A stretch of DNA of 64,000 nucleotides from a bacterium (GCA_965213625.1 CBDBZU010000004.1:58126-122125); one strand, 5' to 3'; positions 3-49,511 are shown, numbered from the stretch's first letter. Program-made: numbers and translations. The notes: generated by a model from the sequence alone, not told the origin.

Positions 3-3000
3 GATGTTGATACGCTTTTCGGCAGCAAGTCGGGCGTCGGTTTCGTGGTGCTGCCCGACGACGACTCCGACCCGATCCTGCTTCCTTATCCAGACGGTTC
101 ACGGGGTCTGGTATGCGACCACGCGCTGCTCGTTTCAAGCCTCCGCGAGGTCATAGAGAACGAGGCCAATGTCGATTTCATTTCCGACGCGCGGGTCAAT
201 GTCGTTGAAAACGAACGGATCACCTTCTCGAAAAACGGCTCGGAATGCGCCATAAATGTCGACCGAATTATCGGCGCCGACGGCCGCGCTTCGATCGTGC
301 GCAGATCCTTGGGATATTCCATGAACCCGATGCTCTGTTCGCGGATGCTCGGGGTGACGTTACACGACGCCGACCTGCTGTTTGAAGGTTACGGACATCT
401 GGTGCTGGGCGGGCCGGGTCCAATTTTCATTTACGGACTTGCGAACGGCTCCGTCCGGGTCAACCTAGATGTCCCATTGGACTGCTGGAATTCCAAGGAT
501 CGGATAAGTTTCTTGTCTGAATCCTATGGCAGGCTGCTTCCGGGATATCTCGGGCAGGCCTTCGTCGAAGCGCTGCACGTCAGGCGATTCTATGCCGCCG
601 CCAACCAGTTGAGACCGCGTGTCACGTACGGGAACCCGCGGCGGGTGCTTATCGGCGATGCGGCCGGACACTATCATCCCATGACGGCAGTCGGCATGAC
701 TCTCGGCTTCGGCGATGCGCTGGCGCTCTCCGAAAGCGAGGACTTCCAGCAATTCACCGCAGAGCGGTTCCAGGCGACCCGTGTTCCCGAGTTCCTTGCC
801 ATGGGGCTTTATGAGGTGTTGGCCGATTACCGCACCGAATCGGTTATGCTCAGAAAGGCCGTTTACCAGGGCTGGCGAGCGAATTCGGGGTATCGGGACC
901 GGACCATGCGGATACTTGCCTGCCAAGAGTTGTCCATGTCAATGACGGTTTTCTCCTTTTGCGAAACTATCGCGCGGGCAATGAGCCGGGAGATAATCTT
1001 CTCCATCCGCAGGTTTTCATGGCGTCGGATATTGGTGAACTTTCGCGCGTTGGCTGCTCGCCTTTGGTGGTTGCTGCTCGGCATCCGCCAGTTGAGGGAG
1101 GCGACCAGGGAAGGAAGGGAGGAAAGCGCGAAAGCGCGAGAGCACCTACGACGGGCATTCCCCTATACCATCCCTTCGAAAACCGAATCGGAGCGGTCCG
1201 CCCGCGCCGGAGAGGTCGATTCGCCCGATGCCGGTCCGGCGCTGGGCAGCGCCGCCCAATGCCTCGTGCAAATGCAGAGAGAGGACGGCCACTGGGAAGG
1301 CGAGATGGTCTGGTGTCCCATGCTCACGGCGCAATACGTACTGCTCCACCACATCATCGGCCAGCCGCTCGATCCGGGAAAGCGGCGCCGGGTGCTGCGC
1401 TCGTTTGAGAGGACCCGTCTCCAGGACGGTTCATGGGGCCTGCACGAGCATTCGTCGCCCCATCTGTTCGTCACCGCCCTCGTTTATGTCGCGGCGCGGC
1501 TGCTCGGTGAAGAGCCGGATGACCCCCTGATCGCGCCGGCCCGGCGGTTCATTCAGGCCGAGGGGATTCTCGGCATTCCGAGCTGGGGAAAATTCTGGCT
1601 GGCGCTCCTTAGTCTTTATGATTGGAACGGTGTGAACGCTGTTCTGCCGGAATTGTGGAGCCTACCGCGGAAGATACCGCTGCATCCCTCCAATTGGTAC
1701 TGCCATACACGGCTCATCTATATGGCGATGGCGTCAATTTATGTCCGCCGGTTCCAGGCGCCCGTCACACCAGTTATCGCCGCGTTGCGGGAAGAACTTT
1801 ATCCGCAAGGTTTTGCCATGGCCGATTTTCTCGCCACCAGGAACCGGCTTCGGGACGCCGATCTTTTTGCAAGGCCGTCCGTCTGGCTCAGGCTCGGATA
1901 TAGATTTGCACGGCTGGTCGAGCGGTTCCACAGCAAACACCTGCGCACACAGTGCATGGATGCAATTCTCGGGCAGATCAGATGGGAACTGCAGACCACC
2001 AGCCATACTAGCATCTCTCCGGTCAGCGGCATTCTCAACATTCTGGCGCTGTGGCTGCACGATCCGGACGATACCGATTGCCGACGGGCGCTATCGAAAA
2101 TGGATTCCTGGATATGGGAAGACGAAGACGACGGCTTGCGGGTCACCGGAGCAAGAAGCGCTTCGTGGGATACCGGGTTCGCGCTGCAAGCTCTGGCTAC
2201 CATGCCTGAGACGGACCGTGTTCGGGATGCGCTCCGGCGCGGCGCCGATTTTCTGCTCGGCGAACAGATCAAGACCAGCTTTGAGCGGTTTCGTGAAGCC
2301 TACCGCGCTGACCCCAAAGGCGGCTGGTGCTTCGCCGGCGGGTGGCATGGCTGGCCGGTGAGTGACTGCACGGCGGAGGCGGTGCTCGGACTCGTCGCCG
2401 CCCACGGAGACGACACGGACTCGTCCGTGCTCAGCGAAGCGATTGGCTTTATGTTGCGAAGCCAGAACCCCGACGGCGGCTTCGGCAGTTATGAGGCCAG
2501 GCGCTCGGCAATTGATCTGGAGCGCTTGAATCCCGCAGAGATGTTCGGCGAATCGATGACCGAGCATTCTTTTGTCGAATGTACCGCGTCTTGTATCGCG
2601 GCGCTGGCTGTCTGCCGGGATCGATTTCCCGAAATTGGCGACAGGTCAGGGGTTGCCGATTCCATCGCCCGGGGCGCCTTGTGGTTGCGACGGAACCAGA
2701 TGGCTGACGGCAGTTGGCGCGGCGTATGGGGGGTCCAGTACATCTACGGCACCCTTTTCGGCATCAGGGGCCTTGTTTCGGACCGGGCCGGTCCAAGCGA
2801 TCCGGCGCTGCGCGCGTCTTGCCGCTGGCTGCTGGAGCGCCAGCAGCAAGACGGGGGATGGGGTGAACACCACAGCGGCTGCCTAAGCGGTCGCTACGTC
2901 CCGCATCAGGAAAGTCAGGTCATACAGACCGCGTGGGCGCTGATAGCGCTCCTCGAGGCGGACGAAACTGACTGGGCCGCGATTTCCCGGGGCGCTGGCT

Positions 3001-3263
3001 TCCTGCTTAATACGCAGGAAGCAGACGGGACTTGGCCCAAGCAGGACATGCCCGGCGTTTTTTTTCGGACGGCGCTCCTGGATTACGGGCTCTACCGCCA
3101 GTATTTCCCCCTGCACGCGCTTGGTCTCTACGAGCAGCGTCGCCGGAAGCGACGCAAGAGCATGATATTACCGGCGAGAAGTCAACGCGTCATGGCTGAA
3201 AGAGTGGCGGCTGTGGAAATGAAGCCGGACGGCGGAACCGGAACGGCAAAGAATATCTCGTAG
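3..3263 (+). CDS. Fused squalene monooxygenase (epoxidase) / oxidosqualene cyclase; 5' end cut by the window edge
   Basis: The frame is open from nt 3 (ORF track 45..3263). The N-terminal part has the squalene-epoxidase-like signature IGDAAGHYHPMTAVGMTLGFGDA. A hydrophobic linker (LAARLWWLLLGI) follows. The C-terminal part has six QW repeats (QREDGHWEG, LQDGSWGL, QNPDGGFGS, QMADGSWRG, QQQDGGWGE, QEADGTWPK) and the catalytic WPVSDCTAEA motif typical of oxidosqualene cyclases, not the DxDDTA of squalene-hopene cyclases. Confidence 0.8.
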   Translation, partial: DVDTLFGSKSGVGFVVLPDDDSDPILLPYPDGSRGLVCDHALLVSSLREVIENEANVDFISDARVNVVENERITFSKNGSECAINVDRIIGADGRASIVRRSLGYSMNPMLCSRMLGVTLHDADLLFEGYGHLVLGGPGPIFIYGLANGSVRVNLDVPLDCWNSKDRISFLSESYGRLLPGYLGQAFVEALHVRRFYAAANQLRPRVTYGNPRRVLIGDAAGHYHPMTAVGMTLGFGDALALSESEDFQQFTAERFQATRVPEFLAMGLYEVLADYRTESVMLRKAVYQGWRANSGYRDRTMRILACQELSMSMTVFSFCETIARAMSREIIFSIRRFSWRRILVNFRALAARLWWLLLGIRQLREATREGREESAKAREHLRRAFPYTIPSKTESERSARAGEVDSPDAGPALGSAAQCLVQMQREDGHWEGEMVWCPMLTAQYVLLHHIIGQPLDPGKRRRVLRSFERTRLQDGSWGLHEHSSPHLFVTALVYVAARLLGEEPDDPLIAPARRFIQAEGILGIPSWGKFWLALLSLYDWNGVNAVLPELWSLPRKIPLHPSNWYCHTRLIYMAMASIYVRRFQAPVTPVIAALREELYPQGFAMADFLATRNRLRDADLFARPSVWLRLGYRFARLVERFHSKHLRTQCMDAILGQIRWELQTTSHTSISPVSGILNILALWLHDPDDTDCRRALSKMDSWIWEDEDDGLRVTGARSASWDTGFALQALATMPETDRVRDALRRGADFLLGEQIKTSFERFREAYRADPKGGWCFAGGWHGWPVSDCTAEAVLGLVAAHGDDTDSSVLSEAIGFMLRSQNPDGGFGSYEARRSAIDLERLNPAEMFGESMTEHSFVECTASCIAALAVCRDRFPEIGDRSGVADSIARGALWLRRNQMADGSWRGVWGVQYIYGTLFGIRGLVSDRAGPSDPALRASCRWLLERQQQDGGWGEHHSGCLSGRYVPHQESQVIQTAWALIALLEADETDWAAISRGAGFLLNTQEADGTWPKQDMPGVFFRTALLDYGLYRQYFPLHALGLYEQRRRKRRKSMILPARSQRVMAERVAAVEMKPDGGTGTAKNIS

Positions 3264-3331
3264 AGGGATGGAAAAAAGGGGACCGGAAGCCGCAGGAATC
3301 GGCATCACGAGAAAGAATCAAATCACGAGAA

Positions 3332-5362
3332 ATGGAGTGTAACATGATAACGAAGCAATCGTTGAATATCCCGCAAGAATTCATCCTGACGATTCTCAAC
3401 GAGCAGAACGGTTATTTCCACCAAGTGGAGGGCTGGACGTTGAACTGCGCCACCATCGGCGCAGTTCTGGCCGATCTCTGCTTGAAATCACGCGTTGATA
3501 CAGATGAAGAATCACTTTTTCTGCTGGACTCAACCAAAACAGGCGACCCGGAACTGGATTTATGCCTGGAAGAGATCGCATCCCATCCCAATCTGGAAGA
3601 ACCGCGATACTGGATTGAGCGGCTTGCAGTTCATTCGGAAGACATCATCGATGCTACGCTGAAGCACTTGATCAAGTCCGAAATTCTGACACGCCATGAT
3701 GGTGAGTTTTATACAACGAACCACTGCGCCTGGCATGCGAAATTGGAACGATATCCCCAAAGCGAGAGCGTCGGAAAGTACATCAAATCGAGAATCGAGG
3801 AGGTGATTTTCACGGATATCATTCCGGACCCGAGGGATTCCCTGATAATCGGTCTTTTGGATGCGTGCGATATCATTAAATTTATTTTCGAGCTGGATGA
3901 GGAAGAGAAAAAGCGAATTGACCTGGTTTGTAAAACGGAACTGCTCAACCGGGTCATTTCCAGTGCCGTCAAGCAAGTCGCCATTACGCCTGCATTGCAA
4001 CACTCACCCCTCACAAAATCAATTCCGAAGATTCCCCTAAAGAGCTTGCTTGCAAATCGGCATTTGTGGGACGGCAACCTGCCGGCGCTGTTCGGGAATC
4101 TGGCCGACCGATATGGTCCGGTCTTTCAAATCTGTGCGCCGTTTCAAAAGCCGCGAACATTTTTAGCTGGACCTGATATCAATCATTGGGTGCGTCGAAA
4201 TTCCCGAAGGTTTTTAACTTCCGGCAATTTTTTTCGCAAGATGGAGATGGTTTGCGGCGCAAACAATTTACTGCCGTCGATGGACGGAGCCGATCATTTT
4301 CGATTGCGCAAGCTGATGGGGAAAATTTACTCGAAAGCCAGTTTCTATGAGAGGCTGGATGATATGTTCCGACTGAGCCGCCAATTCATGATAAGTCAAG
4401 AGTGGCAGGCGGGATCGAGACTGGAAGTACAGCGAGATACCCGGTTGATGACCAATTTTCAATTGTCTCAGGTTCTTATTAGTACGGATTCGCAAGATGT
4501 ATTTGAAGATCTGGTCAAATGGAATGAAAGAGCAATCCTTTGCTACGTTGCGGATTTTCTGCCGAAATTCCTGACGCGCACTCCCGGCATGAAGTATCGC
4601 TTTCAGCTTTACGAGAAACTCCTGCGGCGCATCGAGCAGAACCATATACCCATTCACCGCGCAGGTGTTGTCGAGGAGCTAGCGGACGCACTGATTGCTT
4701 TGCACAACAGCGACCCGCAGTTTATCCCGGAGCAAAACCTGCTGTTCATGCTGGGGGTAACGCCTGTGTTTCAAAGTATTTATCTAGGGGACATGTTGGG
4801 ATTCGTGCTTTATGAAATGGCCAGGCAGCCGGAAATTACGGCGAGAATTCGTGAAGAGGCAAACGCGCTTTTCGATGGCGGGGACCCGGATAAAGACGAG
4901 TTTTCGCCGGACAAGTATGACGTTACCAGACGTTTTCTCATGGAATGCTTACGAATGTATCCGATTATCTGCATACATCTTCGCGATGTCTCAAGTTCTT
5001 GCGTCGTGGCAAATTATTCACTGCCGCTCAGGGAACGGTTGTACATTGTTCAAACCGCGGCGCACTACATGAGTGATTGCTTCGCAGACCCCTACGAATT
5101 CGATATCGACCGTTATCTGCCGCCGCGCAATGAGCATCAAGGTCCTGGATACGCTCCGAACGGCTTGGATACCCACTCGTGCGCAGGATGGGCATGGATG
5201 CATTTGCAGTTAACAGTTACCGTGTTGGTTATAGCGCATCATTTCGAGTTCGCGCTGCCGCCTAAAGACTATAAGCTGAAAATCAACCCGTTCCCGGCAT
5301 TGTCGGTTACGAAGAAACTTCGGCTGCGCATCGCAAGCCAGTTGCGCGAAATTTCGGCTTGA
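3332..5362 (+). CDS. GPP34(GOLPH3-like) domain fused to a divergent cytochrome P450
   Basis: The N-terminal ~215 aa resemble GPP34 family proteins (LNIPQEFILTILNEQNGYF...IGAVLADLCL). The C-terminal ~440 aa has P450 landmarks: YGPVFQI near its start, ExxR (ECLR), the PERF-like PYEFDIDRY, and the Cys-ligand loop PNGLDTHSCAG. It lies 69 nt downstream of the cyclase on the same strand. Confidence 0.7.
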   Translation: MECNMITKQSLNIPQEFILTILNEQNGYFHQVEGWTLNCATIGAVLADLCLKSRVDTDEESLFLLDSTKTGDPELDLCLEEIASHPNLEEPRYWIERLAVHSEDIIDATLKHLIKSEILTRHDGEFYTTNHCAWHAKLERYPQSESVGKYIKSRIEEVIFTDIIPDPRDSLIIGLLDACDIIKFIFELDEEEKKRIDLVCKTELLNRVISSAVKQVAITPALQHSPLTKSIPKIPLKSLLANRHLWDGNLPALFGNLADRYGPVFQICAPFQKPRTFLAGPDINHWVRRNSRRFLTSGNFFRKMEMVCGANNLLPSMDGADHFRLRKLMGKIYSKASFYERLDDMFRLSRQFMISQEWQAGSRLEVQRDTRLMTNFQLSQVLISTDSQDVFEDLVKWNERAILCYVADFLPKFLTRTPGMKYRFQLYEKLLRRIEQNHIPIHRAGVVEELADALIALHNSDPQFIPEQNLLFMLGVTPVFQSIYLGDMLGFVLYEMARQPEITARIREEANALFDGGDPDKDEFSPDKYDVTRRFLMECLRMYPIICIHLRDVSSSCVVANYSLPLRERLYIVQTAAHYMSDCFADPYEFDIDRYLPPRNEHQGPGYAPNGLDTHSCAGWAWMHLQLTVTVLVIAHHFEFALPPKDYKLKINPFPALSVTKKLRLRIASQLREISA

Positions 5363-5542
5363 AGGTGCTCCTGCAGGCCTGACCGGCAATACGGACGCTA
5401 TCGAGAATGAAGGCATGCCGCGAACGTGGACGCGGAGGGGCGGAAGTTTGCTCGCGAGACACCCGGCGGAACCGCCCCGGCCTGATCGGCGCTTAGACGG
5501 CCTCATTCCTTCGACCTACGCCATCACGAAACGTCCCAGAAG

Positions 5543-7882
5543 CTAGTCGCCGAGCGCTTGCCCGTGTTTCGTCCTGTCGAGCGTCAGCAGAAGCGGCGGT
5601 AGTAAAAAGAGGTCCGCAACGAGCGCAATGATGACCGTCATTCCGACCAGCAACCCGAGCGTCTGATTGGTCACTAGCCCCGATGCGCCAAAGACGAAAA
5701 ACGCCACCGCAAAAATCAAGGTTGTGCTTAGCAGCGGTTTTCCAACGAGTTCGAAAGTCGGCGCGATAGCTTCGGAAGGTGATTTGCCCTCTGCGCGTGA
5801 TTTCAGGTATTTGGACAGGAGATGGATGGTATCGTCCACAACGATGGCAAACGCTATCGCGGTAACGATTGACGCCGCAATATTCACGTTTCCCGCGGCG
5901 TAACCCCAAGCCCCCAGGGACATGATTGCCGGAACGAAATTGGGTATTAAGCTCAGAAGCCCCAAACGAAGGCTTTTGAATGCAAAAATCAACAGCAGTG
6001 AGACGATCGAGATCGCGATGAAGGTTCCGAGTAACATGTTCACGATGTTTCTCATCACCGAGTAAGCGCCGACAATGGCGACGCCGGTCGCTCCGGTTCG
6101 CATTTGCGGCGCATTTTTTCCCAGCCAGGCAGAAGCGCGATTGTCCAGCTCGATTTGCTCTTTGACCGACATTCCCCCGATCACGACGGTCATCCGGGTC
6201 GCCGAACGCTCAAAGTTGATGAGATTGTTTATGTCGCGGCCGACCGGTAGAGAGAACTCGTATAAAAGCAGGTATTGCGCCGCAAGGTCGGAGTTTGCCG
6301 GCAGTGCATAGGTGCCTTTTGCGTCATTGCGCAGATTCTGATTAATCCGCTTCATGATATCAGCAATCGAGGTGACGTGAGAAACTTCAGGCTGTTTGCG
6401 AAGCCAATTGGCGAACGAATCCACCCGATGCAGGTACTCAATGTCGGTGATTCCCCCTGCACGCCCGGAATTCAGTGAATACTCAAAGGAATCCAGCCCG
6501 GAAAAGTTCTCGTTTATGAAATCCCCCGATCGGCGCAACTCGTAGCTTTCGTTAAGCAGCTTGGCATTGTTGTTGTCATTCAGTTTAATTCTCGAGACGC
6601 CATATGCGCTCACCAGAACGAGTATGACGAAAGTCCAAAGCAACAAGGTGCTTTTGGAAACGACGAAATCTCCCAAACGCTTGAAAGTTTTCGTTCCGTT
6701 TCTCTTTTCGGCGGGCGCCCGCATGGGCATCATCGCCAACAATGCGGGCAAAAGCGTGACCGCGTAAGCGAATGCGCACATGGCGCCGAACGCAACGATA
6801 TTTCCCATCACTCGAAACGGGGGCATTTCCGAGAAATTCAGGCTCAGAAAACCGATCATGGTGGTGAGCGAAGTGAGGAATATCGGATGGGCATTGATTT
6901 GCAGGGAATGAACAACAGCGGCTTTACGTTCCATTCCACGAAGCATTCCATCGGTCATTCCTTCGATCAGATGGACGGAGTGTGCGATGGCAATCGCCAT
7001 CAGAACGAATACCGCGGCGCCGCTTTCCGCATAGAATTTCAATCCGAACCAGCCGGTTAAACCGAAACTCGATGCCATCACCGCAATTATCATCGCAATA
7101 ATTCCACAAACGCTCCAAACCGAACGCAGCAATAGAATGGCCACCAGAACCATCATCGCAAACGCGATGGGCGCCAAAAAGGACATATCTTCATTCAGCG
7201 CCTCGCGAACCGCCCGATTCAACAACAGTTCACCATAGATGTGATATTCGATATCGGGGTTGGACGCGCGCTGTTTGTTGACGAGACCGTAGAGACCGTC
7301 GACCACTTCGATTTTGCGCTGTTTCCTTTTCTCATCGGGAATAGCCAGGCTCACGATCAGCCCGGCTACACGACCGTCGCGAGAGACGAAACGGCCGGCC
7401 GTTTCCTGTGTGGTGAGCGCAATCTCTCGAACACGGGCGAGTTTGACCTCGTCCAGCGAAGCCGCATCGTCGACCAGCTGCTCGACAATCAGTGTGTCCT
7501 CGATTCCCTCGGTGTGTAGGTAATTGGTTATCGAATCGACACGGACAGAATAAGGCGTTTGCCACAACACCTCCGTCAGTTGCTCAATCGCAACGAGTGC
7601 TTTGCGCGTGAAAACGGTGTCGTTCGGCGGGGCGACAATGACGAGCACGCTGTCCGACACTGCGTAGGTCTTTTCGAAATCGTCGAGTTTGATCAAATGC
7701 GGATCATCTTCATCGAAGTGATTTCGGATGCCTACATTGACGGTAATCAGGTGCTGCACTCCCGCGGCGAGAACCGCGGTCACCAGGAATGTGACGGCTA
7801 TCGTCCAGAAGTATTGACCCACTACCAGATCGAAAAAACCGGACTTCGACTTGGATGTCATGTTATGTGCGCTTTCCCGCAT
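5543..7882 (-). CDS. RND/MMPL-superfamily transporter (HpnN-like, 12-TM type)
   Basis: 779-aa ORF with two blocks of multiple hydrophobic helices separated by soluble loops, the typical MMPL/HpnN layout. It is convergent with the P450 gene. Confidence 0.65.
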   Translation of the reverse strand: MRESAHNMTSKSKSGFFDLVVGQYFWTIAVTFLVTAVLAAGVQHLITVNVGIRNHFDEDDPHLIKLDDFEKTYAVSDSVLVIVAPPNDTVFTRKALVAIEQLTEVLWQTPYSVRVDSITNYLHTEGIEDTLIVEQLVDDAASLDEVKLARVREIALTTQETAGRFVSRDGRVAGLIVSLAIPDEKRKQRKIEVVDGLYGLVNKQRASNPDIEYHIYGELLLNRAVREALNEDMSFLAPIAFAMMVLVAILLLRSVWSVCGIIAMIIAVMASSFGLTGWFGLKFYAESGAAVFVLMAIAIAHSVHLIEGMTDGMLRGMERKAAVVHSLQINAHPIFLTSLTTMIGFLSLNFSEMPPFRVMGNIVAFGAMCAFAYAVTLLPALLAMMPMRAPAEKRNGTKTFKRLGDFVVSKSTLLLWTFVILVLVSAYGVSRIKLNDNNNAKLLNESYELRRSGDFINENFSGLDSFEYSLNSGRAGGITDIEYLHRVDSFANWLRKQPEVSHVTSIADIMKRINQNLRNDAKGTYALPANSDLAAQYLLLYEFSLPVGRDINNLINFERSATRMTVVIGGMSVKEQIELDNRASAWLGKNAPQMRTGATGVAIVGAYSVMRNIVNMLLGTFIAISIVSLLLIFAFKSLRLGLLSLIPNFVPAIMSLGAWGYAAGNVNIAASIVTAIAFAIVVDDTIHLLSKYLKSRAEGKSPSEAIAPTFELVGKPLLSTTLIFAVAFFVFGASGLVTNQTLGLLVGMTVIIALVADLFLLPPLLLTLDRTKHGQALGD

Positions 7883-8564
7883 GATTTGATTCCTTCTCGC
7901 GGTGCCGACTCCTGCAGCATCCGGTAATCTTTTTTCCCATACCTCTATAATATCTGCCTTCTATTGTATGGCTTCATGTCCATGGCCGCCACTTTTTTTA
8001 TGACAGGTTGGCTTCTCGCGGGAGCAGACCATCAGACAACTCCGTCGAGACGACGGATCAGCGGTTCTGTGACGGAGATCCAGTCGTCCCGCATCGGGCG
8101 CGCCGACGCGCTGCTCCTCACGAGCACCCATGCCCGCGATTTGCTTAAAGGCGGGGGCGCGACGCTCGTCGGGGAGACGGTCGAGACGTTCGATTGCGCG
8201 GGCGCGCGCTGCGTCGCTCGGAACGGGACGGCGGTCTCAGCCTCTCCTGGGCGCACAACGTAATACGCCCCGGCCATGAATGCGCTCGCCTTGACGGCCC
8301 AACAGGCACCATTGAGAAAGATCCGGTGTCGGTGTATATTTGTCGAATATTCGTTCAGCTTTGAGAAAAAGCGTCGTCTCATGAGAAAATGCGAACCAGC
8401 CGCTTTAGGCGCATATTCTCCTTGTGATTTGCTGCCTTGGGGAAAGCGGCGAGTCGCCCCTTCCGGCATCCTCTAGTGGAAACCTCCTGAAGAAAGAATG
8501 CAGCATCTCCCTCTTGCCGGGAGGGGCGGCGCTCGAACACATCATTTTCATTCGGGAGGGAAAG

Positions 8565-9767: not shown

Positions 9768-10286
9768 ATGCAGTCCTTTGCACGAAACGAGCCAGTGAAA
9801 AAACGGGGCGTTCGATCCTCTTCCCCGGTAGTCCCGACGACAGGAACGCCGGGAACGACCGCCAGATGTCCAGTATACACTATCAATATGGGGTTGGTGT
9901 GAAGATTCGGGATGATGACTATGATAACATAATCATCGTGGAGAGATATGCCAAATTTTCAAGTGGCACACGAACCTTCAGCGGCAAGGAATTCAGGTCG
10001 ACCTCTCTGTCGCTCGAGGCTCTGCAAGCTCGCTTACGATCTTTCAGGCGACGTTCCTCGTACAAGTCACATCCGAAACCCGAATAGAAAGAGAATCTGC
10101 CTGCATACACGAAATGTTCGAGAGGAGGAAACGCTGCCCTGAATGGCCAAAACCCGCGCCTCCCCTCAAATAAGCCTCATTTTCACGGTACCGGGCCCCT
10201 GCAGCCGGGCACCGCCCTTGGACCCGATAACGTTCGTTCGATCATTAGGGGCGATCTTTCATTCTGCATCAAAGACTGAAGAAGTG

Positions 10287-11207
10287 ATGCGAAAGGAAAT
10301 GGAATTCACCGACTTCAAGCGCCACTACTTGGGCGAGTTTCCGAACAAAGATGCGCCGGCGCAGGACGTTTTACGTTATGGACGCGTAAAGCTGGAATCA
10401 GGAGCCACCCAGGCCCATGGCCACACGCAAGGGGCTTGGAGTTTTTCGTTCACGCCGAGCGGTGATAGGATTGAAAGATTCACACCGCCCTTGGTGAGTA
10501 AACGCCTCATGAACAAATGGTTGCGTCGTCCGGGAGCTCCGCACACGATTCCCTTGAATCCCGAGGAAATGAATGAAGTCTGCTCTGTCCTGGCGGGAGA
10601 GTTCGACGAACCCGATGAGGTTTTCATGAATTTCATGGTGCGCCTCCCCGGCTGGGCGAGACTCGAGTTCGAAAACGTCGACAGATTGTTCGGGGAATTG
10701 ACGAGGGGCCATGCGCCCCTGCTTGACTTCGTTAAAATGTGCCGGGTGCGGGTATATGACGATCGGCGAACCTTGGAGATTGCCTATCGCCGCCTTTGGC
10801 TGCTCGACAGCGTTCGAATACGTGCGGACGCTGAAGAGGAGGAGTGGCGTTTTCGTGCGATTGAGGCGGCGTCCCGGGTTCTCGAGAGCCGCGGGGAGCG
10901 TGTCCAGGCTTGCCGTTTCATAGTCTTGCTCCAGGGGTTCCTGTGGCTGGCGTTTCAGGCGTTTTCGGGTGCATCGCTAGTGTATCTGTGGAACATCGGG
11001 CGGACGGATACGAATCTCCTATGGGCGGGCGCCGCGGCCTTCTCGCTGTCTGCTGCCACGTTCGCGCCCGGCCTTTTGAAGCGGATGTTTCCCCAGGATA
11101 CGGAAGTAGAGGCGAGAAGCCCACTGCGCCTGTTTCTGGGTGTGGTTTCTATGCTTTCGAGTATCGTTGCGGCTGTAGCGGTGATACTCGGCCTCGCCGG
11201 CATATGA
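10287..11207 (+). CDS. Hypothetical protein with C-terminal transmembrane helices
   Basis: Long ORF; start chosen at MRKEMEF. The C-terminal ~100 aa contain three hydrophobic segments. I recognise no family. Confidence 0.35.
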   Translation: MRKEMEFTDFKRHYLGEFPNKDAPAQDVLRYGRVKLESGATQAHGHTQGAWSFSFTPSGDRIERFTPPLVSKRLMNKWLRRPGAPHTIPLNPEEMNEVCSVLAGEFDEPDEVFMNFMVRLPGWARLEFENVDRLFGELTRGHAPLLDFVKMCRVRVYDDRRTLEIAYRRLWLLDSVRIRADAEEEEWRFRAIEAASRVLESRGERVQACRFIVLLQGFLWLAFQAFSGASLVYLWNIGRTDTNLLWAGAAAFSLSAATFAPGLLKRMFPQDTEVEARSPLRLFLGVVSMLSSIVAAVAVILGLAGI

Positions 11208-11234: not shown

Positions 11235-12032
11235 TTGAAAATGACCACCGGGACGAGGGGAGCTAGAAACGCCCAAAGGAAGTTCGGTGACCTCCCAGTA
11301 CCTTTGGGTCTGTCTCTGCTCGGCAACCTTCACCAGATTCGTTTTGCGAGGATGCACTGCATACTCGAGAGATGGGCGGATCGATACGGGCCGATCTATT
11401 GCATATCGCTGGGCAGGCGAAATTACGCGGTGGTCTCGGAACCGGACGCCATAGCCCATATACTGGGGAAGCGGCCCCACGGCTTCCGGCGCGAGAAGTC
11501 GAGCACCTGAGACGGTGCTGGGAACGCGCGGCCGATCATGGAGAGGCGATAGACCCCTACCGTGACCTCATGCGCTTCACCGCCCGTGTCACTATGCAAT
11601 TCGTCTTCAGCGTCGACCTCGGCGCGCCCGAAAGTCCCGGCGCATCCATCCGTCACCATCTCGCCGCCATATTCCCGGTGTTGCACCGCCGTCTGAATCT
11701 GCCCTTACCCTTTTGGAGGTGCTTCCGGCTGCCTTCGGATCGAGCGCTCGAACGCGCTCTTGCCGGACTGAAAGCCGAGGTTCGCGACATGATCCGCACT
11801 GCTAAGGAACGAATGGAAGAAAACCCGCGGCGCAGCGTTACGCCTGGGAATTTCATCGAAGCCTCAATCGCCGCCAGAGGATGTGCACGAGCGCCTCTCC
11901 TTCACCATGGCACCCGAGAAACTTATCGTACGCATAAGGCGCAGACAAGGCGCTTCATCCGGTTCGAATTCATCCCTAATCCCTCGCCGTGCCCAGGGCT
12001 ACCACGCGGACGGTCGCGATGCCCGGAGGTGA
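11235..12032 (+). pseudogene. Cytochrome P450 remnant (three fragments in three frames, core deleted)
   Basis: Fragment 1 is the P450 N-terminus (LPVPLGLSLLGNLHQI...WADRYGPIYCISLGRRNYAVVSEPDAI). Fragment 2, frame-shifted, is the middle part (GEAIDPYRDLMRFTARVTMQFVFSVDL...LKAEVRDMIRTAKERMEENP). Fragment 3 from 11877 is the C-terminal tail (EDVHERLSFTMAPEKLIVRIRRR). The I-helix, ExxR and heme loop are absent. Confidence 0.65.
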
Positions 12033-12172
12033 AGATTATCTTCACGCTTTTTCAACAGCCCCGTCAGTGCCTGCCAACAAACGCCGGCACATTCCATACT
12101 TATCCGATAGCACCGGGAAAAGAAGCGTTCGGGAGCTTCAGCTTCCCTCTTAGGAGAGCGTCGTTATCGTTT

Positions 12173-13110
12173 GTCGGGTAGGGCACTGGCGCGCGCACCT
12201 TTAGGCGGAGGGTTTCCAGCCCTGCCCTTTCGGTTCCAGGGTGGGGTCACAGTTCCGCCTTGAGCCACGTTTCCAGCCGCCCCCCCTAAAATTCCGTACG
12301 TCGAGTTTTCCTCGGTACGGCTTCCAGCAACAGGCACCTCCCAGTTTGGAGTGGAGTATTCCGCGGGAACACCGGGGTTTAAGACCGACCCTGCCATACC
12401 CCTCGGCGGGTCCAACGTTTACTCCGCCCTCAGGCTTCACCATGTGCAGAGCGCTTTCCCCCGCCTCTGTGTGCGGGCTGCCCGCCACGGTGTCGCCACC
12501 TGTGCCCAGAGGTCCTCGCTCCGGGTGGGTTGTGTTCTCCCACCCTTCATCGCTTGGCGACCTCGTCCGCCAGTCTGGAGGTCTCCGTCTCACTTCCCGG
12601 CGCCCCGGTTATAAAGACGGTCTTCGACATTCACAGGGTCATCCTGTCATGACCTCCACACCTTCCGGACTTTCACTGCGCTACTTTCGAGTATTGCCGC
12701 CTTCAATACGCCGGGAGCCCCGGTTCGTGCGCCTCAGTTTCTTCTGCACCGGCACTGGCCATCGGTTAGGAGGGAGACCCTTGGCAACTCCATCTACCCC
12801 GCAAATCAGCTTCACGCGGGAAGTCCTTGTTTCGACGCTTCATCCGTTCACTTTCGTTACGGTCCTACTCGTTGCTTGCCTGCCGGGCTGATCGCACACG
12901 AGCGGCACGGCGGCCCCTCTGTACCCCGAGGCTTTTACGTCCGGGCTTCCAGAGCGCCGGGTCGCCCCGTACGTCTGCTGGATATGACTACGGCGCCAAA
13001 CTGAGAATTGCGCCGGCGGGACTTTCACCCGCTAGTACCGCAGTTAGTCTCGCTGCACCCCTCCCGCAGGACTTTCACCAGCTGCACTGACACCAGTTAG
13101 CCTGGCGCAC
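12173..13110 (-). ncRNA. ORF-less group II intron-like RNA (element B)
   Basis: The minus strand starts GTGCGCCAGGCTAAC at 13110. A 34-nt domain V-like hairpin sits at 12323->12290 (AAGCCGUAC CGAG GAAAA CUCG AC GUACGG AAUU, with a 2-nt AC bulge). The element ends ...GCCCUACCCGAC at 12173, with a UA bulge 7 nt from the end. There is no credible ORF on either strand. Confidence 0.45.
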
Positions 13111-13123
13111 ACCCCATCGCTTG

Positions 13124-15399
13124 GTCGGGTAGGAGGGGGCATTGCTGCGCCCCTCCCCCCACAGACCCGAGCGTGCGCGATTGACACACTCGGTTCCTCA
13201 CCTGACAGGTTCGCTCAAGGGGTTGTCACCCTTGCTCCGCAGGTCGAGGCATTCCTCGCCTGTTTGGCTATCCACTGCTGTTTCGTGTACGTGTTGGTGG
13301 AACTCAGAGTTTCCTCCAGCGTTTCCCATCAGTGGCTCTGTACAGATGACGCCCCGCTTCCCTCCAGTGGGTCCCGGTGGCCACGGTTCCCCGCCTTCAG
13401 CGGTACTATCAGGGCGCTACGACTTCCTGCCCTTCTCTAATCGGGACGAGCAAGTCAAGTTCCTCTGCCCTGTTTTTTCCAGCTCTGTTCCGCCTTTGGT
13501 TTTAGACGATACTCCATGGGGGTCTCGCTTCTCTACGTGATCGGCACCCGGTCCGGGGCCGTCAACAGGATGGGATCGGAGAACGAGGTGGAACAATCTC
13601 GCATACGTCCTCGCACCGTCACCGACGGAGCGGAACGGGGCAGGAAGCGAACTCACCTCGTCCCTCGTCCCCACGGGAGCATCCTCCGCCAGATCGGAAG
13701 CTGCCGTAGTATTCGGATTCTTCTCCTCTTGGATTCCCAAGGTCAGGCGGCTACGTCATCCACGCCGTCGCGTTTCCAGCGGAACTCGCTGCCATCCATC
13801 CATATGCGGTGCATGATGACGCCGAGCCGGCGGGCAAGCGCAACCTTCGCGCGCGCCTTGCCGCGACGCTTCGCCACACCCATCGCCCAGGCTTTCAGCC
13901 ATGACCACCGCGTCGTGCGCCCGAGCAAGGCGTTGGCGGCTTCGTAGAGCGCCGCGCGCATCATCGCGTCGCCGCACTTGGAGATTCTTCCCGTTCGGTC
14001 GACCTCTCCGGATTGCCATTTGCGAGGCGCAAGCCCGAAGTGCGCGCCCACCGAGCGCGAACGAGCAAAACGCGATGGCACGTCGACGCTCGCCCGGAAG
14101 GTGAGCGCCGTCACCGGACCCACGCCGGGGACCGTCATCAGGCGACGGCAGACCGGGTCGACGCGCACCGCCTCCAGCATCATCCTGTGCAGCCGGACGT
14201 ATTCCGCCAGCAACGCCGCTCGCGCCCGCAGCATCGGCTTCACCAGGCCCGCCAGCGCCGGGCGCTCCGCGACCAGTCCAAGCACCCGCGCCTCCAGCCC
14301 GCGGCGGGTGACCTTGCCCATCTTCAGCCCGAAGTTGCGCAGCGTGCCCCGGATGTTGGCCTCGGCGTCGCACAACTGCTTCAGCATGAACCTGCGGTTG
14401 GCGAGGAGCATTCGTTTCTCCTGGCTCGACACCGTCTTCACGTGCACCGGGCGAATCAGGTTCGCGCGAACCAGCTGGGCGATCCCGCGCGCGTCGTCAC
14501 GGTCGCTCTTGTTCACCGTCGCAGATAGTATGGCCTTCAACTGCCGCGTCTCGGCGCAAACCACCGGGAGCCCGGCCTCGGCCAGGCCGTCATGGAGCCA
14601 CTGCGACAGCGGCCCCGCCTCAAGACAGATGCGCGTCACGCCGAAGTCCAGCCCGGTGAAGAACGCCGCGAGGGCCGCGGGTTCGCTCGCGACCTTCGCC
14701 TCCCGGACGATCCCGCCGTCCACGTCCACCACGCACACGCTCGTCCACTCCAACGACACGTCGAGTCCTGCAAAGTAGTTCATGACTGCTCCTCCTGCGG
14801 GCGCGTAGAGACCGGACCATCCCGGCCTCGCCTCGATCATATGACAGAGGAACATCCCCTACACGCGGTAGTTCGAGGGCCGACCCGATTATCCCATCTC
14901 GCATCTCCTTCGGCTTATTGTTTTCACCAGCCGGTTCCGCGGGCGCCTGCCGGGTTCGTGTCCGCCATGGGGCGCTCCCGCCGCCGTGCAAGCCCGGCGA
15001 CGGACCGGGGTCTGGATTTTCATGCTGGCCGTCCCCTTTCCAGCGTTCTTGCCCACGGGCAAGAGCAGGATCTCCCAGGTTCCCTGGCGACCCATCCCCG
15101 TAACTTTGCGCCGGTCCACGACCCCGGACGACCCGTTGCGCCTCGCCGATAGCGGCGCTTCCGGTGCTGCCCCCACACGATTAACAATGAAGGCGTCGTC
15201 GATTCACCGATTTCGAGGCTTACCCCACCGCTTCGTCACCTGCTGTCTACGCTTCACGACGCACGTTGCCGCACGCCATGCAAGACTCGCTTCCGGCTGG
15301 CTGGCTTCGCCTTTGCCGGGCGGGAGTCGAACCCGCTGGGTCGCTACGAGAGGTTTCAGGTCATGGCGTCCTCCTCTCCAGGGCTTAGCCTGGCGCAAT
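13124..15399 (-). mobile_element. Group II intron-like RNA (element A) containing an IS110-family recombinase gene
   Basis: Minus strand: a domain V-like 34-nt hairpin at 13196->13163 (GAACCGAGU GUGU CAAUC GCGC AC GCUCGG GUCU). It is followed directly by a domain VI-like hairpin with a bulged UA, ending ...CCUCCUACCCGAC at 13124. The candidate 5' end is TTGCGCCAGGCTAAG at 15399. The IS110 ORF occupies the position where an intron-encoded protein would sit. Confidence 0.35.
13743..14783 (-). CDS. IS110-family (DEDD/RuvC-like) transposase/recombinase
   Basis: MNYFAGLDVSLEW...CLEAGPLS...NKSDRDDARGIA (DEDD N-terminal domain) and PGVGPVTALTF...GLAPRKWQSGEVDRTGRISKCGD (Transposase_20-type C-terminal domain). 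Start chosen at ATG 14783, behind the SD AGGAGGAG; the ORF track extends to 14855. Confidence 0.9.
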   Translation of the reverse strand: MNYFAGLDVSLEWTSVCVVDVDGGIVREAKVASEPAALAAFFTGLDFGVTRICLEAGPLSQWLHDGLAEAGLPVVCAETRQLKAILSATVNKSDRDDARGIAQLVRANLIRPVHVKTVSSQEKRMLLANRRFMLKQLCDAEANIRGTLRNFGLKMGKVTRRGLEARVLGLVAERPALAGLVKPMLRARAALLAEYVRLHRMMLEAVRVDPVCRRLMTVPGVGPVTALTFRASVDVPSRFARSRSVGAHFGLAPRKWQSGEVDRTGRISKCGDAMMRAALYEAANALLGRTTRWSWLKAWAMGVAKRRGKARAKVALARRLGVIMHRIWMDGSEFRWKRDGVDDVAA

Positions 15400-15402
15400 A
15401 AA

Positions 15403-15423
15403 CGTTCGGCGACAGGGTGATGG
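15403..15423. repeat. Left terminal inverted repeat of the IS66-type element
   Basis: Perfect 21/21 reverse-complement match with 18743-18763. Confidence 0.85.
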
Positions 15424-15509
15424 CGCCGGGTTTACTCATTCCGGACTTAAGCAAAAGGTTCTTGTTGAGGGGCTGGTAACATCATCCGGCATGTGGTAAT
15501 CATGTCGGC

Positions 15510-17857
15510 ATGAAGATTTGCACGGAAGGTGTCGAGACGAAGCCGGCGTTGGTCGAGAGGCCGAATGAGCCATGGCCTCATTCCCCTGATTTGTCCACAA
15601 CCGCAGAGGCGTACTGGCGTTCGCAGTACGAGCGCGAGCGTGCGCGCGCGGAGGCGGCGGAGGCGCGCTGCGAGGAGTTGCGGTGGGCGGAAGTGGATTC
15701 GCGCGCCCGTGCGGGTAGGCTGAAGCGGCAGTTCGACGTCTGCCGGAAGAAGCTCGAGGAGGCCGCCGGTGAGGCGAAGGAAGCCCGCCGCGCGGCGAAG
15801 GACGCGCTGTCGCTCAAGACGGAAGTGGAGCGGCTGGAGAAGCTGCTTGCGGAAGCAGGGGTCGAGCCGCGCAAGCGCAGCCCGCTCATGTCGCTGCGCA
15901 TGGAGGTCGTCCGGCTTCGCAAGGAGCTCTCGGGCGTGCCGTCGCCGGGGGAGGCGGGGCGGGTGCGCAAGGCCCTGGAGGAGCGCAGGGAGACGATTCA
16001 TGCCCTGCGCAAGGAGGTCGGCCGGCGGGAGAAGGAGGTCGCCCGGCTGGAGGAGCGACTGGACCGGGAGAAGCAGAAGTCGGCGGCTCACAAAGAGACC
16101 ATCCGGGGCCTGGACGAGGAGGCCATCGGGCTCTACAGGAAGTTGCGGCGATTGCGCGACCAGGCGGAGGTGGTCGAGTCGTTGTCCGCGGAGGTTTACC
16201 GTCTTAAAGTCTCCCTGGGAGCCGCAGGCATCGCGACCGAACGACTGAAGGCGCGGTTGTTGCGCGCAATGGAGGCGGCGCGCTCGAGGTCGCCGTCCCG
16301 TGCGGACGAGGAACTGCGCAAGGCCCTGGGGAGGTCGCGGCGCCAGAAGACGGCGCTCGGGTCCCTGTCCAGGGAGAATGCGCGGCTTCGCCGGGCGCTA
16401 CGCAAGTCAGAGACCCGCCGGGCGCGTCTGGAAGCCGAGCTCGCGAAGCTTCGCGCCACGGGAGTGGTGCTGGCGAAGAGGCTGTTCGGGCGCAAGAGCG
16501 AGCGGCAGGAGAAGCCGCGCTCGGAGCGCAGGCGCGGCGGGCAGCCCGGCGCCCGGGGCCATGGCCGCACCCCTCGTCCCGCGCTCGAGGAGAGGACGGA
16601 AGTTCGCAACCCGCCGCCCGCGTCTGCGCCTGTTGCGGGCAGCCCTACGTGGCCAACGGCGCGCGTGTATCGAGCCTCGTCGAGATCGAGGTCTCGGCCC
16701 ACAAGCGCGTCATCCGCCGTCCGCGGTGGCGCCGGGGGTGCGGTTGCGCGTCGTCTCCCATGGAGGTGTCGGCGCCGCCCGCGCCGCGCCTGTTCGCGGG
16801 CACGTCCTTCGGGACGAGCGTATGGGCGCGCTTCCTGTTCGAGCGCTACGCCTGCTTCCGCCCGCTGCGCCGGGTTGCCGCGTGGCTCTCCGACCAGGGG
16901 CTTACCGTCTCGGCGGGGACGCTGGGTGACAGCGCGCACCGCTTCACGCCCCTGTTCGAGCCGCTGGCCGGGGCGATCCTCGCCCGCCAGAACGAGTCTA
17001 CGCTGCGCCACGGGGACGAGACGACCTGGCGGATACAGTCGCTTCGCGAGCAGGGGCGATCGAGCCGCGCCTGGCTGTGGACATCGGTAAGCACGGACTC
17101 CGTCTACTTCCACGTCGACCCCTCGCGGGGCGCCGGGGTCGCGATGAAGCTGTTCGGCGCGGCCGGCCGCCATACGGTCCTCGTCTGCGACCGCTACAGC
17201 GCCTACAAGAAGCTGGCGCGCGAACTCGACGGCGCCGTAATCCTATCCTTCTGTTGGAGCCACCAAAGAAGAACCTTTATCGACAGCGCGGCCGGCGAGG
17301 CGCGCCTGACGCCGTGGTGCGAGAGATGGATCGGGCGGATCGCCTTGCTCTACCGCCTGAACGAGGCGCGCCTGGCCCGTTACGACTCAGGTCTCGAACA
17401 CCAGGACGCGGCGTTCGACGCGGCGCACGACGAATTGAAGAAGGCGCTCGAGGGCCTGTTCGCGCAGGCCCGACGCGAACTGGCCGCCCTGTCGGCGCAG
17501 GCGCCCGAGGGCAAGGCGCTTCGCTCGCTGCTGAACCACCGCGAGGGGCTGAGCGTCTTCCTCGAGCGCCCCTGGGTGCCGACAGATAATAACGCCATTG
17601 AGAGAGTGCTCAGGGGTCCCGTGATCGGGAGGCGGCTCTCGTTCGGCTCCGACAGCGAGGCCGGCACCGGGTTCACGGCGATGATGTACTCCGTCCTCGG
17701 AACGCTCTCATCGAACGGCATCGACCCGCTCCGCTGGCTCGATGCATGGCTCACCGCCTGCGCGCAGAACGGCGGCCGGGCGCCCGGGGACCTCTCCGCA
17801 TGGCTGCCCTGGTCGATGAATGCGGAGCGCAGGCGCGCCCTCACGGCGCCGGGATGA
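15510..17857 (+). pseudogene. IS66-family transposase (TnpC-type) split by a -1 frameshift near 16612-16622
   Basis: Frame 1 holds a long coiled-coil N-terminus, then LFGRKSERQEKP...GARGHGRTPRPALEERTEV. Frame 2 continues with the zinc-finger CACCGQPYVANGARVSSLVEIEVSAHKRVIRRPRW, DETTWRIQ, VLVCDRYSAYKKL, FCWSHQRRTF and TDNNAIERVLRGPVIGRRLSFGS, which are typical IS66 TnpC blocks. Confidence 0.8.
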
Positions 17858-18734
17858 CGCCGTGATCGAGTGCCGCTACTACGGACGCGACTTCACGACT
17901 GATGAGATGACGCTGCTGCGCGCGCTGATCACCGGCCCTCCCGCGCTCAATCGCAACGTGCTCTCCAAGGAGTTCTGCCGGCGCATCGGCTGGTTCAAGC
18001 CCGACGGCGGACTCAAGGACATGATGGCCCGGGTGACCATGCTCGCCATGCACAGAGACGGCCTGATCACGCTTCCCCCGCCGAAGCGCCCGCGGCACCC
18101 GGCCCGGCCGATCGTCTTCGGGCCAGACACCGAAGCGCCTCTCATCCCGGCGCCCGAGACCCTCGACGAGGTCCGTCCCCTCGGGATGCGCATCGTCGTG
18201 CGTGGAACCCGCGAGGGAAGGCTCTGGAACGAGTTCGTCGCCCGCTACCACTACCTCGGCTACAAGACCCTCGTCGGCGCCCAGATGCGCTACGCCGTAC
18301 ACGACCGCGACGGCAGGCCCCTCGCCATGCTCGGCTTCTCCACCGCCGCGTGGAAGCTCGCCCCGCGCGATGCCTTCATCGGCTGGACGCCCAGGCTGCG
18401 CGAGAAGAACCTTCCCCTCGTGGTCGACAACCCGAGGTTCCTCATCCTGCCATAGATCAAAATCCCCAACCTCGGCTCGCATCTCCTCGCCATCCTTCGC
18501 AGGCGACTGCCCGACGACTGGACCGAGCGCTATGGCACGACCCCCGTCCTCATCGAGACCTTCGTCGAGACGCCACGCTACACCGGCGCCGTCTACAGGG
18601 CTTCAGGATGGATTCACGTCGGAACCACACAGGGACGCGGACGCTACGACAGGTACAAACGCCACGACAAACCCAAAAAGGATGTCTGGCTACGTCCCCT
18701 CCGCAACAACTGGAAGAAAGTCCTCAACCGCTGA
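17820..18734 (+). pseudogene. DUF4338 (Druantia DruA-like) protein gene with an in-frame TAG at 18453-18455
   Basis: ARYHYLGYKTLVGAQMRYAV...LGFSTAAWKLAPRDAFIGW...VVDNPRFLILP[TAG]IKIPNLGSHLLAILRRRLPDDWTERYGTTPVLIETFVETPRYTGAVYRASGWIHVGTTQGRGRYDR. The same frame continues for 93 codons after the stop. From memory, family members carry Trp at the stop position. Confidence 0.7.
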
Positions 18735-49150: not shown

Positions 49151-49511
49151 TGGTGGAGGCGGCGGGAATCGAACCCGCGTCCGCAAGGCTTCCGTCGTGA
49201 GCGTCTACGCGCGTAGCCGGTGGAAAGGGTTTCGCCCGGTCTCAAGCCCACCGGCGGGCCATCCTCCGGGCTAGTCCGATTAGATTTCGCCTAGCAGGCT
49301 CCGGACCGAAACCTGGGTCGGCTAGTCCGCATCATGACGTTCCGCACCTCCCCCGCGGACGAGGCGAGGGGGAACGCTCGCTAGCGTTTAAGCAGCGAGA
49401 GCCAGCTCGTTGTCGGCTGGTGTGATTTTGCCACATTGATAACGGGGCCAAGTGGCGTCCCCGGCGCGCAGCTCAGACTTCAAATCCTCCCGTCGAAGCC
49501 AGATCGCCCCC
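49151..49511 (-). ncRNA. ssrA: tmRNA (SsrA)
   Basis: Minus strand: 5' GGGGGCGATCTGGCTTCGACGGG ... 3' GGACGCGGGTTCGATTCCCGCCGCCTCCACCA. The internal tag ORF GCC GAC AAC GAG CTG GCT CTC GCT GCT TAA encodes ADNELALAA. The gene is adjacent to smpB. Confidence 0.9.

Follow-up and report, generated by a model that had tools for sequence, protein, structure and literature searches.

Organization and conservation of the fused gene

The stretch of bacterial DNA analyzed here (GCA_965213625.1 CBDBZU010000004.1:58126-122125), referred to below as the window, is 64,000 nucleotides (nt) long. At its left end lies a gene in which a squalene epoxidase (SE) and an oxidosqualene cyclase (OSC) are encoded in a single open reading frame (ORF). 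The parts of this gene are listed below by nt coordinates and strand. Residue numbers are those of the window protein or of its close relative P0001, and L083 is an unfused relative described in a later section.

3-3263, plus strand: fused SE-OSC ORF, 1086 codons in the window, its 5' side cut by the window edge
3-1121, plus strand: SE (flavin monooxygenase) part, equivalent to P0001 residues 61-433, from Pfam, the human structure 6C6N and Foldseek
273-293, plus strand: DG motif GADGRAS of the epoxidase part
654-701, plus strand: GD motif GDAAGHYHPMTAVGMT of the epoxidase part (core GDAAGHYHP)
1020-1103, plus strand: hydrophobic/amphipathic helix WRRILVNFRALAARLWWLLLGIRQLREA (P0001 residues 400-429, window residues 340-369), the C-terminal membrane-associated helix of the epoxidase
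1122-1229, plus strand: true inter-domain connector of about 36 residues (P0001 residues 434-469, window residues 374-409), from conservation, the model and the L083 alignment
1230-3146, plus strand: complete OSC domain with four QxxxGxW repeats, from Pfam, NCBIfam and the human structure 1W6K
2358-2378, plus strand: VSDCTAE acid motif, with the catalytic Asp (human D455) at nt 2364-2366 and the Val equivalent to human V453 at nt 2358-2360
3147-3263, plus strand: variable, basic C-terminal tail and stop codon (conservation 0.19-0.62, with gaps)

Translation from nt 3 gave 1086 sense codons followed by one terminal stop at 3261-3263, in agreement with the first-pass annotation, which had described an uninterrupted frame of more than 1080 codons. 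At the local GC content of 60% (stop probability of 0.032 per codon), the chance of a stop-free run of this length is about 5e-16. The two signatures quoted in that annotation were also located: GDAAGHYHPMTAVGMT at residues 218-233 (nt 654-701) and VSDCTAE at residues 786-792 (nt 2358-2378).

The 5' end of the ORF is beyond the left edge of the window. Because the frame is open past this edge, the listed start at GTG 45 (ORF 45-3263) is a product of the window edge and not a real start. Of the epoxidase, some 60 residues at the N-terminus lie outside the window, and with them the GxGxxG motif. The public ortholog P0001 (1146 residues), encoded on the 4.48-Mb contig OZ242260.1 (locus L001), is 96.2% identical to the window protein over 1086 residues. 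The 60 residues absent from the window start MPKYDAAIIGAGPVGS in P0001 and contain the FAD dinucleotide-binding motif GAGPVG. A C-terminal frameshift had been suspected in a 92% relative, L002; this locus is intact, and the suspect sequence was another entry, P0002.

A homolog search gave 681 proteins, of which the best 120 clusters were examined. These 120 show 65-96% identity to the window protein, nearly all are 1100-1170 residues long, and the SE and cyclase Pfam domains are both present. In a genome scan with one genome per GTDB species, a relative was found to be encoded in 178 species-level genomes. The best 80 of these 178 loci were taken for comparison, and all 80 match over both halves. 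The genome titles span the Alpha- and Gammaproteobacteria, Nitrospirales, Nitrospinaceae, Binatia, Thermodesulfobacteriota, Dehalococcoidia, Opitutales and Bryobacterales.

Fifty-five family members were aligned, and the statements on invariance in this text are based on this alignment; it has zero gaps in the region between the two domains. The conserved fused architecture, together with a gap-free junction that contains invariant residues, excludes a missed stop or frameshift. The fused gene is genuine and selectively maintained, and it encodes one polypeptide with two consecutive enzymes of the sterol pathway. The survey of domain co-occurrence upholds the earlier claim of a fusion, which is real and conserved among relatives across phyla; the rarity implied by that claim was overstated, for among sponge-associated bacteria it is the fused form that is usual.

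There is next to no probability that the single frame is an artefact of assembly or sequencing between two genes: in L083, a relative of about 51% identity, the two genes lie 5 nt apart in different frames and a one-base error could interconvert the two states, but the fused architecture recurs in species-level genomes from independent projects, the junction is free of gaps and has invariant residues within it, P0001 is collinear with the window protein without an indel over 1086 residues, and the fusion was reported independently by two publications.

Structure of the epoxidase half

The N-terminal half had been described as a squalene monooxygenase, and this identity is supported by its sequence, its motifs and a predicted SQLE-type fold. 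The Pfam SE domain (PF08491) covers residues 90-307 with a score of 71.9 bits, compared with a gathering cutoff of 20.1. When all PDB sequences were searched, human squalene monooxygenase SQLE (6C6N) was the best match of this half with 94.9 bits, and the next flavoprotein scored 37; the identity between human SQLE and the epoxidase half is about 21-23%. The GxGxxG motif (GAGPVG in P0001), the DG motif and the GD motif are all invariant.

The AlphaFold2 model of full-length P0001 has a mean predicted local distance difference test score (pLDDT) of 69.8 and a predicted template modeling score (pTM) of 0.47, with a poorly modeled cyclase half; it was used for local secondary structure and for superposition on SQLE only. 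Across the N-terminal half, the pLDDT is mostly 70-90. Superposition of the predicted model on 6C6N by Foldseek gave a template modeling (TM) score of 0.77 and a root-mean-square deviation of 3.2 Å over 444 columns, for a target of 450 residues.

The counterpart of Y195 in human SQLE is a Phe (window residue 14; F74 in P0001), which is invariant across the fused family. This replacement, the weak matches to UbiH/UbiF-type NCBIfam models and the numerous PHBH-fold structures that superpose on the epoxidase half might be taken to mean that this half is not a squalene epoxidase but either an FAD monooxygenase of another kind, UbiH- or PHBH-like, or a remnant without activity. Such an identity seems very improbable: the SE domain is above its cutoff, SQLE is far ahead among the solved relatives (95 bits versus 37), the fold match spans the entire SQLE construct with its C-terminal helices included, and the DG and GD motifs never vary. 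Furthermore, standalone epoxidase orthologs sit immediately 5' of OSC genes. The N-terminal half is therefore best regarded as a putative squalene epoxidase.

Helix and connector between the two domains

The link between the domains had been described as a segment of about 70 residues with a hydrophobic helix. This description needs revision: the helix is the C-terminus of the epoxidase itself, and the real connector is about 36 residues long. To place the domain borders, 1.84 billion representatives were searched exhaustively. Standalone epoxidases of 440-460 residues (P0187, P0212, P0219, P0255 and P0257) align from query residue 3 to residues 420-433 and thus span the helix. The alignment of standalone cyclases starts only at query residues 470-473.

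In the P0001 model, the long helices 372-397 and 400-429 are followed by a short helix (436-445), a low-confidence segment (453-468) and the first helix of the cyclase, which starts at residue 470. According to Foldseek, the SQLE fold with its C-terminal helices covers roughly the first 445 residues of the model. Since the standalone epoxidases align through the helix and SQLE superposes to about residue 445, the helix belongs to the epoxidase itself. Its Kyte-Doolittle hydropathy is highest at P0001 residue 412, with a value of 1.55, and the region aligns without gaps; Arg413 is invariant, and Leu410, Trp416 and Gly420 are nearly so. The connector is of fixed length in the 55 sequences, with lower conservation and low model confidence.

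Structure of the cyclase half and its predicted product

The C-terminal half is a complete oxidosqualene cyclase by domain content, as had been claimed. Pfam assigns SQHop_cyclase_N to residues 416-709 and SQHop_cyclase_C to residues 719-1044. With the SE domain of the other half, the domains expected of both enzymes were called, and the C-terminal half was not assigned to the squalene-hopene cyclases. The general model for squalene and oxidosqualene cyclases, TIGR01787, gave 509 bits, above its cutoff of 322.7. The best NCBIfam model was that of the 2,3-oxidosqualene cyclase subfamily, TIGR03463, with 727 bits; this is under the curated cutoff of 851. The hopene cyclase model of NCBIfam gave 265 bits. 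Among all PDB sequences, human lanosterol synthase (LSS; 1W6K) was the best match with 451 bits over residues 67-724, compared with 177 bits for squalene-hopene cyclase (1GSZ). Foldseek also ranks OSC first for this half (E = 8.5e-27). The identity between human LSS and the cyclase half is 35%.

The catalytic residues of the human enzyme, mapped through the alignment, are conserved in the cyclase half: D455, C456, C533, H232, Y503, W387, F444, W581, F696 and Y704. They are invariant or nearly so among the 55 family members. D848, C849, C920, H628 and Y890 of P0001, which correspond to human D455, C456, C533, H232 and Y503, are all invariant, as is V846, which corresponds to V453. The acid motif is of the VxDCTAE type and not the DxDDTA of hopene cyclases. 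The presence of the DCTAE motif with all of its catalytic partners makes a tetracyclic protosterol a reasonable prediction for the product, in line with the sterol scaffold that had been proposed from this motif.

In human numbering, the lanosterol-type specificity triad consists of T381, C or Q449, and V453. The corresponding residues of the cyclase half are A381, H449 and V453. The first two are not of the lanosterol type, and H449 is the state found in cycloartenol synthase. In bacteria, lipid analysis has shown that V453 goes with lanosterol and I453 with cycloartenol in every organism tested (Wei et al. 2016, PMC4919349). From V453 and this single-position rule, lanosterol is the best guess and the most likely product of the cyclase half; because of H449, the uncertainty over this prediction is real.

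If the fusion is real and the product is something else, the candidates would be cycloartenol, parkeol, a mixture, or an arborane-type or other triterpenol. This seems unlikely, although the chance is not a negligible one. The residues at positions 381 and 449, the shortfall against the TIGR03463 cutoff and a Met at the position of human Y98 all point in that direction. Opposed to them are V453, which never varies in the family and by which alone the bacterial rule separates lanosterol from cycloartenol (PMC4919349), and the gene content of most relatives, where CYP51-like, ERG24 and SdmAB genes, which act on 4,4,14-trimethyl sterols, share the operon.

Origin of the fusion

The closest apparently standalone epoxidase, P0144 (51% identity), is encoded in L083 (ENA ERZ24894576, 6001-9440). 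This locus has an operon in the order HSD, small ORF, Rieske oxygenase, P450, SE (477 residues) and OSC (666 residues), which is the same order of HSD, Rieske, P450, SE and OSC as in the relatives of the window gene. Where the window has one ORF, L083 has two that are out of frame with each other: the SE stop is followed by a spacer of 5 nt, after which the OSC starts.

The SE of L083 ends with ...RTNETGPSADGADVDIAKGK directly before its stop, and the OSC begins with VSARATGVADLDAGPALKSAG... The fused connector of the window family, ...SKTESERP-ARAGEVDSPDAGPALESAA..., aligns as the SE tail of L083 and then its OSC N-terminus. This means that the fusion corresponds to an end-to-end join of adjacent operon genes. 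Judged from this alignment, the fused gene arose from neighboring SE and OSC genes of a bacterial sterol operon by loss of the stop codon and the 5-nt spacer.

Proposed mechanism and benefit of the fusion

The best explanation of the gene, and one that we consider probable by a good margin, is that it is a genuine bifunctional epoxidase-cyclase gene, which was joined from adjacent genes and was apparently acquired horizontally with two neighboring genes, those of a GPP34-P450 fusion protein and of an RND transporter (described below).

In the proposed mechanism, the N-terminal part (about 433 residues) would use FAD, O2 and an external reductant to convert squalene to (3S)-2,3-oxidosqualene. 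The cyclase would then take 2,3-oxidosqualene from the same membrane patch. The Asp of VSDCTAE in the C-terminal part (about 640 residues) would protonate the epoxide, folding would proceed through the protosteryl cation, and after deprotonation a protosterol, probably lanosterol, would be released. The membrane helix of the epoxidase stands directly before the connector. Both enzymes are monotopic membrane proteins, with a substrate and a product that remain in the bilayer. For this reason, the probable benefit of the fusion would be an obligatory 1:1 stoichiometry and co-localization, and not a protein tunnel. Proximity within the membrane may limit loss of the epoxide or its second epoxidation. 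Direct hand-over of oxidosqualene from one active site to the other, as had been suggested in the first-pass annotation, is plausible.

Several points weigh against this explanation. No tunnel or fixed interface between the domains could be read from the AlphaFold2 model (pTM 0.47), so that channeling is a conjecture. The Phe in place of Y195 in the epoxidase half, and A381, H449 and the score below the TIGR03463 cutoff in the cyclase half, have been described above. No reductase partner or squalene synthase is visible in the 64-kb window. The literature search found no biochemical characterization of a natural fused SE-OSC enzyme; the earlier remark that no characterized fused enzyme was known appears to be still true. 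Finally, the split form in L083 looks functional, and a fusion is thus not required.

This last point also bears on whether the fusion is of any use. It might be without kinetic advantage: a neutral read-through that fixed co-expression of two domains working independently. The join is a simple loss of a stop, no segment of the protein is less conserved or less confidently modeled than the connector, and both enzymes act on membrane-dissolved substrates, all of which such a reading would accommodate. Moreover, split and fused forms both persist, which indicates that the fusion is not essential, and neutral co-expression is given substantial weight for this reason. It is nevertheless the less probable reading, if not by far, as the length of the connector is strictly fixed in 55 sequences from several phyla, the fused form dominates the family and was kept through repeated horizontal transfer, and published work reports that the gene is under purifying selection, with an omega of 0.17 (PMC9531527). 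A fusion maintained for its stoichiometry and co-localization remains our preferred interpretation. The fused gene and the unfused L083, which gives the exact split point, form a natural test case for whether the flux of a membrane-dissolved intermediate rises when two monotopic membrane enzymes are fused.

Sterol operon and neighboring genes

The gene content of the related loci was scored as presence or absence by tblastn. The fusion closes an operon in 64 of the 80 loci; in order, this operon encodes an SdmB-like dehydrogenase, an SdmA-like Rieske oxygenase, an ERG24-type reductase, a CYP51-like P450 and SE-OSC. A sterol methyltransferase (SMT) gene is usually located just downstream of this operon on the opposite strand. 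None of the CYP51-like, ERG24, SdmA, SdmB and SMT genes was found by tblastn in the 64-kb window, and none of the five was found by the same method within 10 kb on either side of the fusion in L001-L005, L008, L028, L033 and L041. On a neighbor-joining tree of the fusion, such reduced loci, which are without the tailoring genes, occur at no fewer than four places, that is, at least four.

Two genes next to the fusion in the window are of particular concern here.

3332-5362, plus strand: fusion of GPP34 (GOLPH3-like) and cytochrome P450, 676 residues, named GPP34_L, from Pfam
5543-7882, minus strand: RND/MMPL transporter (HAE3, HpnN-like) with a sterol-sensing domain, 779 residues, convergent to the GPP34_L gene

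The GPP34_L gene begins 69 nt past the stop of the fusion. Its product has an N-terminal GPP34 domain (PF05719, 82.3 bits) and a C-terminal P450 domain (PF00067, 78.2 bits), which has both the Cys-ligand motif GLDTHSCAG and the EXXR motif. More than 120 clusters of homologs have both domains. The P450 domain was considered as an orthodox CYP51 and rejected, with 54 bits against the CYP51 of Methylococcus capsulatus; it shares about 23-26% identity with the CYP51-like P450 encoded in the canonical operons and is only distantly CYP51-like. The RND protein scored 123.7 bits with Pfam MMPL and 32.5 bits with the Sterol-sensing domain. Its NCBIfam scores with HAE3 (186 bits) and HpnN (104 bits) are both below cutoff. 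A scan for promoters and terminators between nt 3100 and 8300, approximately, gave fewer sites than were obtained in shuffled sequences.

Of the 80 species-level loci, 26 have a full-length GPP34_L gene no more than 10 kb from SE-OSC; these 26 belong to Alpha- and Gammaproteobacteria, Binatia, Nitrospirales and Opitutales. The GPP34_L gene directly adjoins an RND gene in 14 of these 26, in varying orientations. In the clade of the window, GPP34_L is the sole candidate tailoring enzyme near the cyclase, and GPP34_L and the RND protein are the only pathway-like neighbors.

A paper of 2025 described the GPP34-P450 architecture as found only in sponge symbionts and proposed for it a role in phagosome evasion through binding of phosphatidylinositol 4-phosphate (PMC11706023). 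The words sterol, steroid, squalene, terpen-, RND, MMPL and efflux do not occur in that paper, and a search of the literature on GPP34 together with sterol and sponge found nothing relevant. The link of GPP34-P450 and RND genes with sterol genes is apparently unreported; it should be taken as a lead and not as a result. As a tentative proposal, which we would sooner doubt than assert, SE-OSC, GPP34_L and the RND gene might form a compact mobile three-gene unit that makes a protosterol, oxidizes it and moves it to the cell surface or the host. If true, this unit would tie the sponge-symbiont-specific GPP34_L to sterol chemistry. On the other hand, the linkage may reflect a shared symbiosis island, and the substrate of the P450 may be unrelated to sterols.

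Host and remaining part of the window

The PolA protein encoded in the window (53390-56122, minus strand) has its nearest named relatives in metagenome-assembled genomes (MAGs) of Candidatus Tectomicrobia and Nitrospinota, with 70-72% identity, and the tmRNA (49151-49511, minus strand) is of the one-piece type. In contrast to these host markers, the SE-OSC of the window groups with copies from Paracoccaceae (77% identity) on the neighbor-joining tree. In addition, nt 4001-8000, the region of the GPP34-P450 and RND genes, has a GC content of 52%, compared with about 60% for the window. The disagreement between the host markers and the gene tree and the shift in GC content fit horizontal acquisition. 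SE-OSC was apparently acquired in this way, together with the GPP34-P450 and RND genes, by a Tectomicrobia/Nitrospinota-like host.

Many of the related genomes carry sponge-type isolate names (among them Spongia_Bin9, Poriferihabitaceae and SB06xx bins). These names and the adjacent GPP34-P450 architecture suggest a sponge habitat for the contig of the window as well.

Otherwise, the window is an ordinary piece of chromosome, with genes for PolA, RNase R, Ppk/Ppx, TRAP and TctA transporters, a sulfatase and the tmRNA. Immediately past the RND gene, four ORFs have no Pfam match (8032-8469, minus strand; 10143-11207, 11372-12181 and 12241-12891, plus strand), and hardly any counterpart of these four exists among the 80 related loci. 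An IS110-family transposase gene (13743-14855, minus strand) is beside a match to group II intron D1-D4 RNA (15112-15329, minus strand; RF02005, 132 bits). The stretch 14001-18000 with the transposase and intron has a GC content of 66-70%, and its long ORFs are without convincing Pfam matches.

Distant epoxidase-cyclase fusions

Genuine SE-OSC fusions also occur at 37-48% identity (P0121-P0126, P0133 and P0137). In the exhaustive search, the genuine SE-OSC representatives were P0029, P0121-P0126, P0133, P0137 and four fragments that span the junction. Five further candidates, P0213, P0218, P0228, P0244 and P0263, were rejected as SE-OSC, as Pfam assigns their C-terminus to squalene synthase (SQS_PSY). 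These proteins of 1120-1190 residues have an N-terminal SE, a middle segment of about 400 residues to which no domain was assigned, and the C-terminal SQS_PSY domain; the middle segment of P0228 shows a weak cyclase-like match.

In L082 (1-11450), the distant fusion P0126 (44% identity) is divergent to an HpnC/HpnD/HpnE-like set for squalene synthesis. The further neighbors, among them genes of the methylerythritol phosphate (MEP) pathway, encode DXS, a polyprenyl synthase and IspH. From its gene content, L082 is a putative compact isoprenoid-to-protosterol locus outside the sponge-type family. In L081 (GCA_041156705.1), an ORF of 1562 codons (3257-7945, plus strand) combines HMG-CoA reductase, polyprenyl synthase, squalene synthase and 3-beta-HSD/epimerase domains. 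The distant fusion P0133 (8001-11222, plus strand) is 55 nt downstream of it, so that six sterol-pathway domains are encoded in two adjacent ORFs.

Comparison with known systems

The two chemistries, the folds and the catalytic residues assigned to the window gene are those of the squalene monooxygenase (SMO) and LSS of M. capsulatus and of human SQLE (6C6N) and LSS (1W6K). In M. capsulatus and in humans, however, the enzymes are encoded by separate genes, and the human enzymes differ from the window gene at positions 381 and 449. The CYP51-ferredoxin protein of M. capsulatus (PMC7947880) is likewise a natural fusion within a bacterial sterol pathway, but it joins an enzyme to its redox partner and not two consecutive enzymes of the pathway. 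When a bacterial lanosterol synthase was made as a separate protein in Escherichia coli, its solubility was poor (PMC12146001). A natural single-chain epoxidase-cyclase would be a ready-made part for bacterial sterol production.

The fused form itself has been published as MsbE, from the msb locus of a gamma-proteobacterium that lives in symbiosis with the sponge Melophlus sarasinorum (Mohanty et al. 2020, Mar Drugs 18:124, PMC7074536). MsbE, which comes from the MAG of a sponge symbiont, shares its architecture with the window gene, as judged from its published description. The clusters are different: that of MsbE includes CYP51-like, sterol reductase, SdmAB-like and SMT genes, whereas the window copy is without these in 64 kb and is instead beside the GPP34-P450 and RND genes, in a host of another phylum.

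Genes of the same family and habitat have been described as "fused SMO/OSC homologs" or Group 1 bacterial OSCs (Brown et al. 2023, PMC10070321) and within the ERG24-CYP51-LSS "clusters of steroid genes", which were found in 115 of 537 Ircinia MAGs from 10 phyla (Kelly et al. 2022, PMC9531527). Horizontal gene transfer and purifying selection were reported for these clusters in the latter study, whose LSS alignment of 3765 positions agrees with the fused length (PMC9531527). The 80 loci compared here reproduce the operon of these studies: the canonical operon of 64 of them is the msb locus and the "cluster of steroid genes". In both studies the gene is treated as an OSC/LSS; the N-termini were trimmed by Brown et al., and the fusion is not discussed by Kelly et al. 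The junction, the unfused precursor state and the reduced variant of the cluster were analyzed in neither. A review of merotriterpenoids (PMC5618424) has no word on gene fusion, and an SE-OSC fusion is not mentioned by Hoshino & Gaucher (2021) or Wei et al. (2016).

The fused SE-OSC family prevails among sponge-associated bacteria and passes from one phylum to another. Sterol synthesis by the bacteria of sponge microbiomes is relevant to the debate over sponge biomarkers, in which the producers of sponge-type sterols are disputed, and to the interaction of symbiont and host. A specialist in bacterial sterols would not find the window gene surprising: the fusion and its spread across phyla are already published, and the window gene adds a member to a described family.

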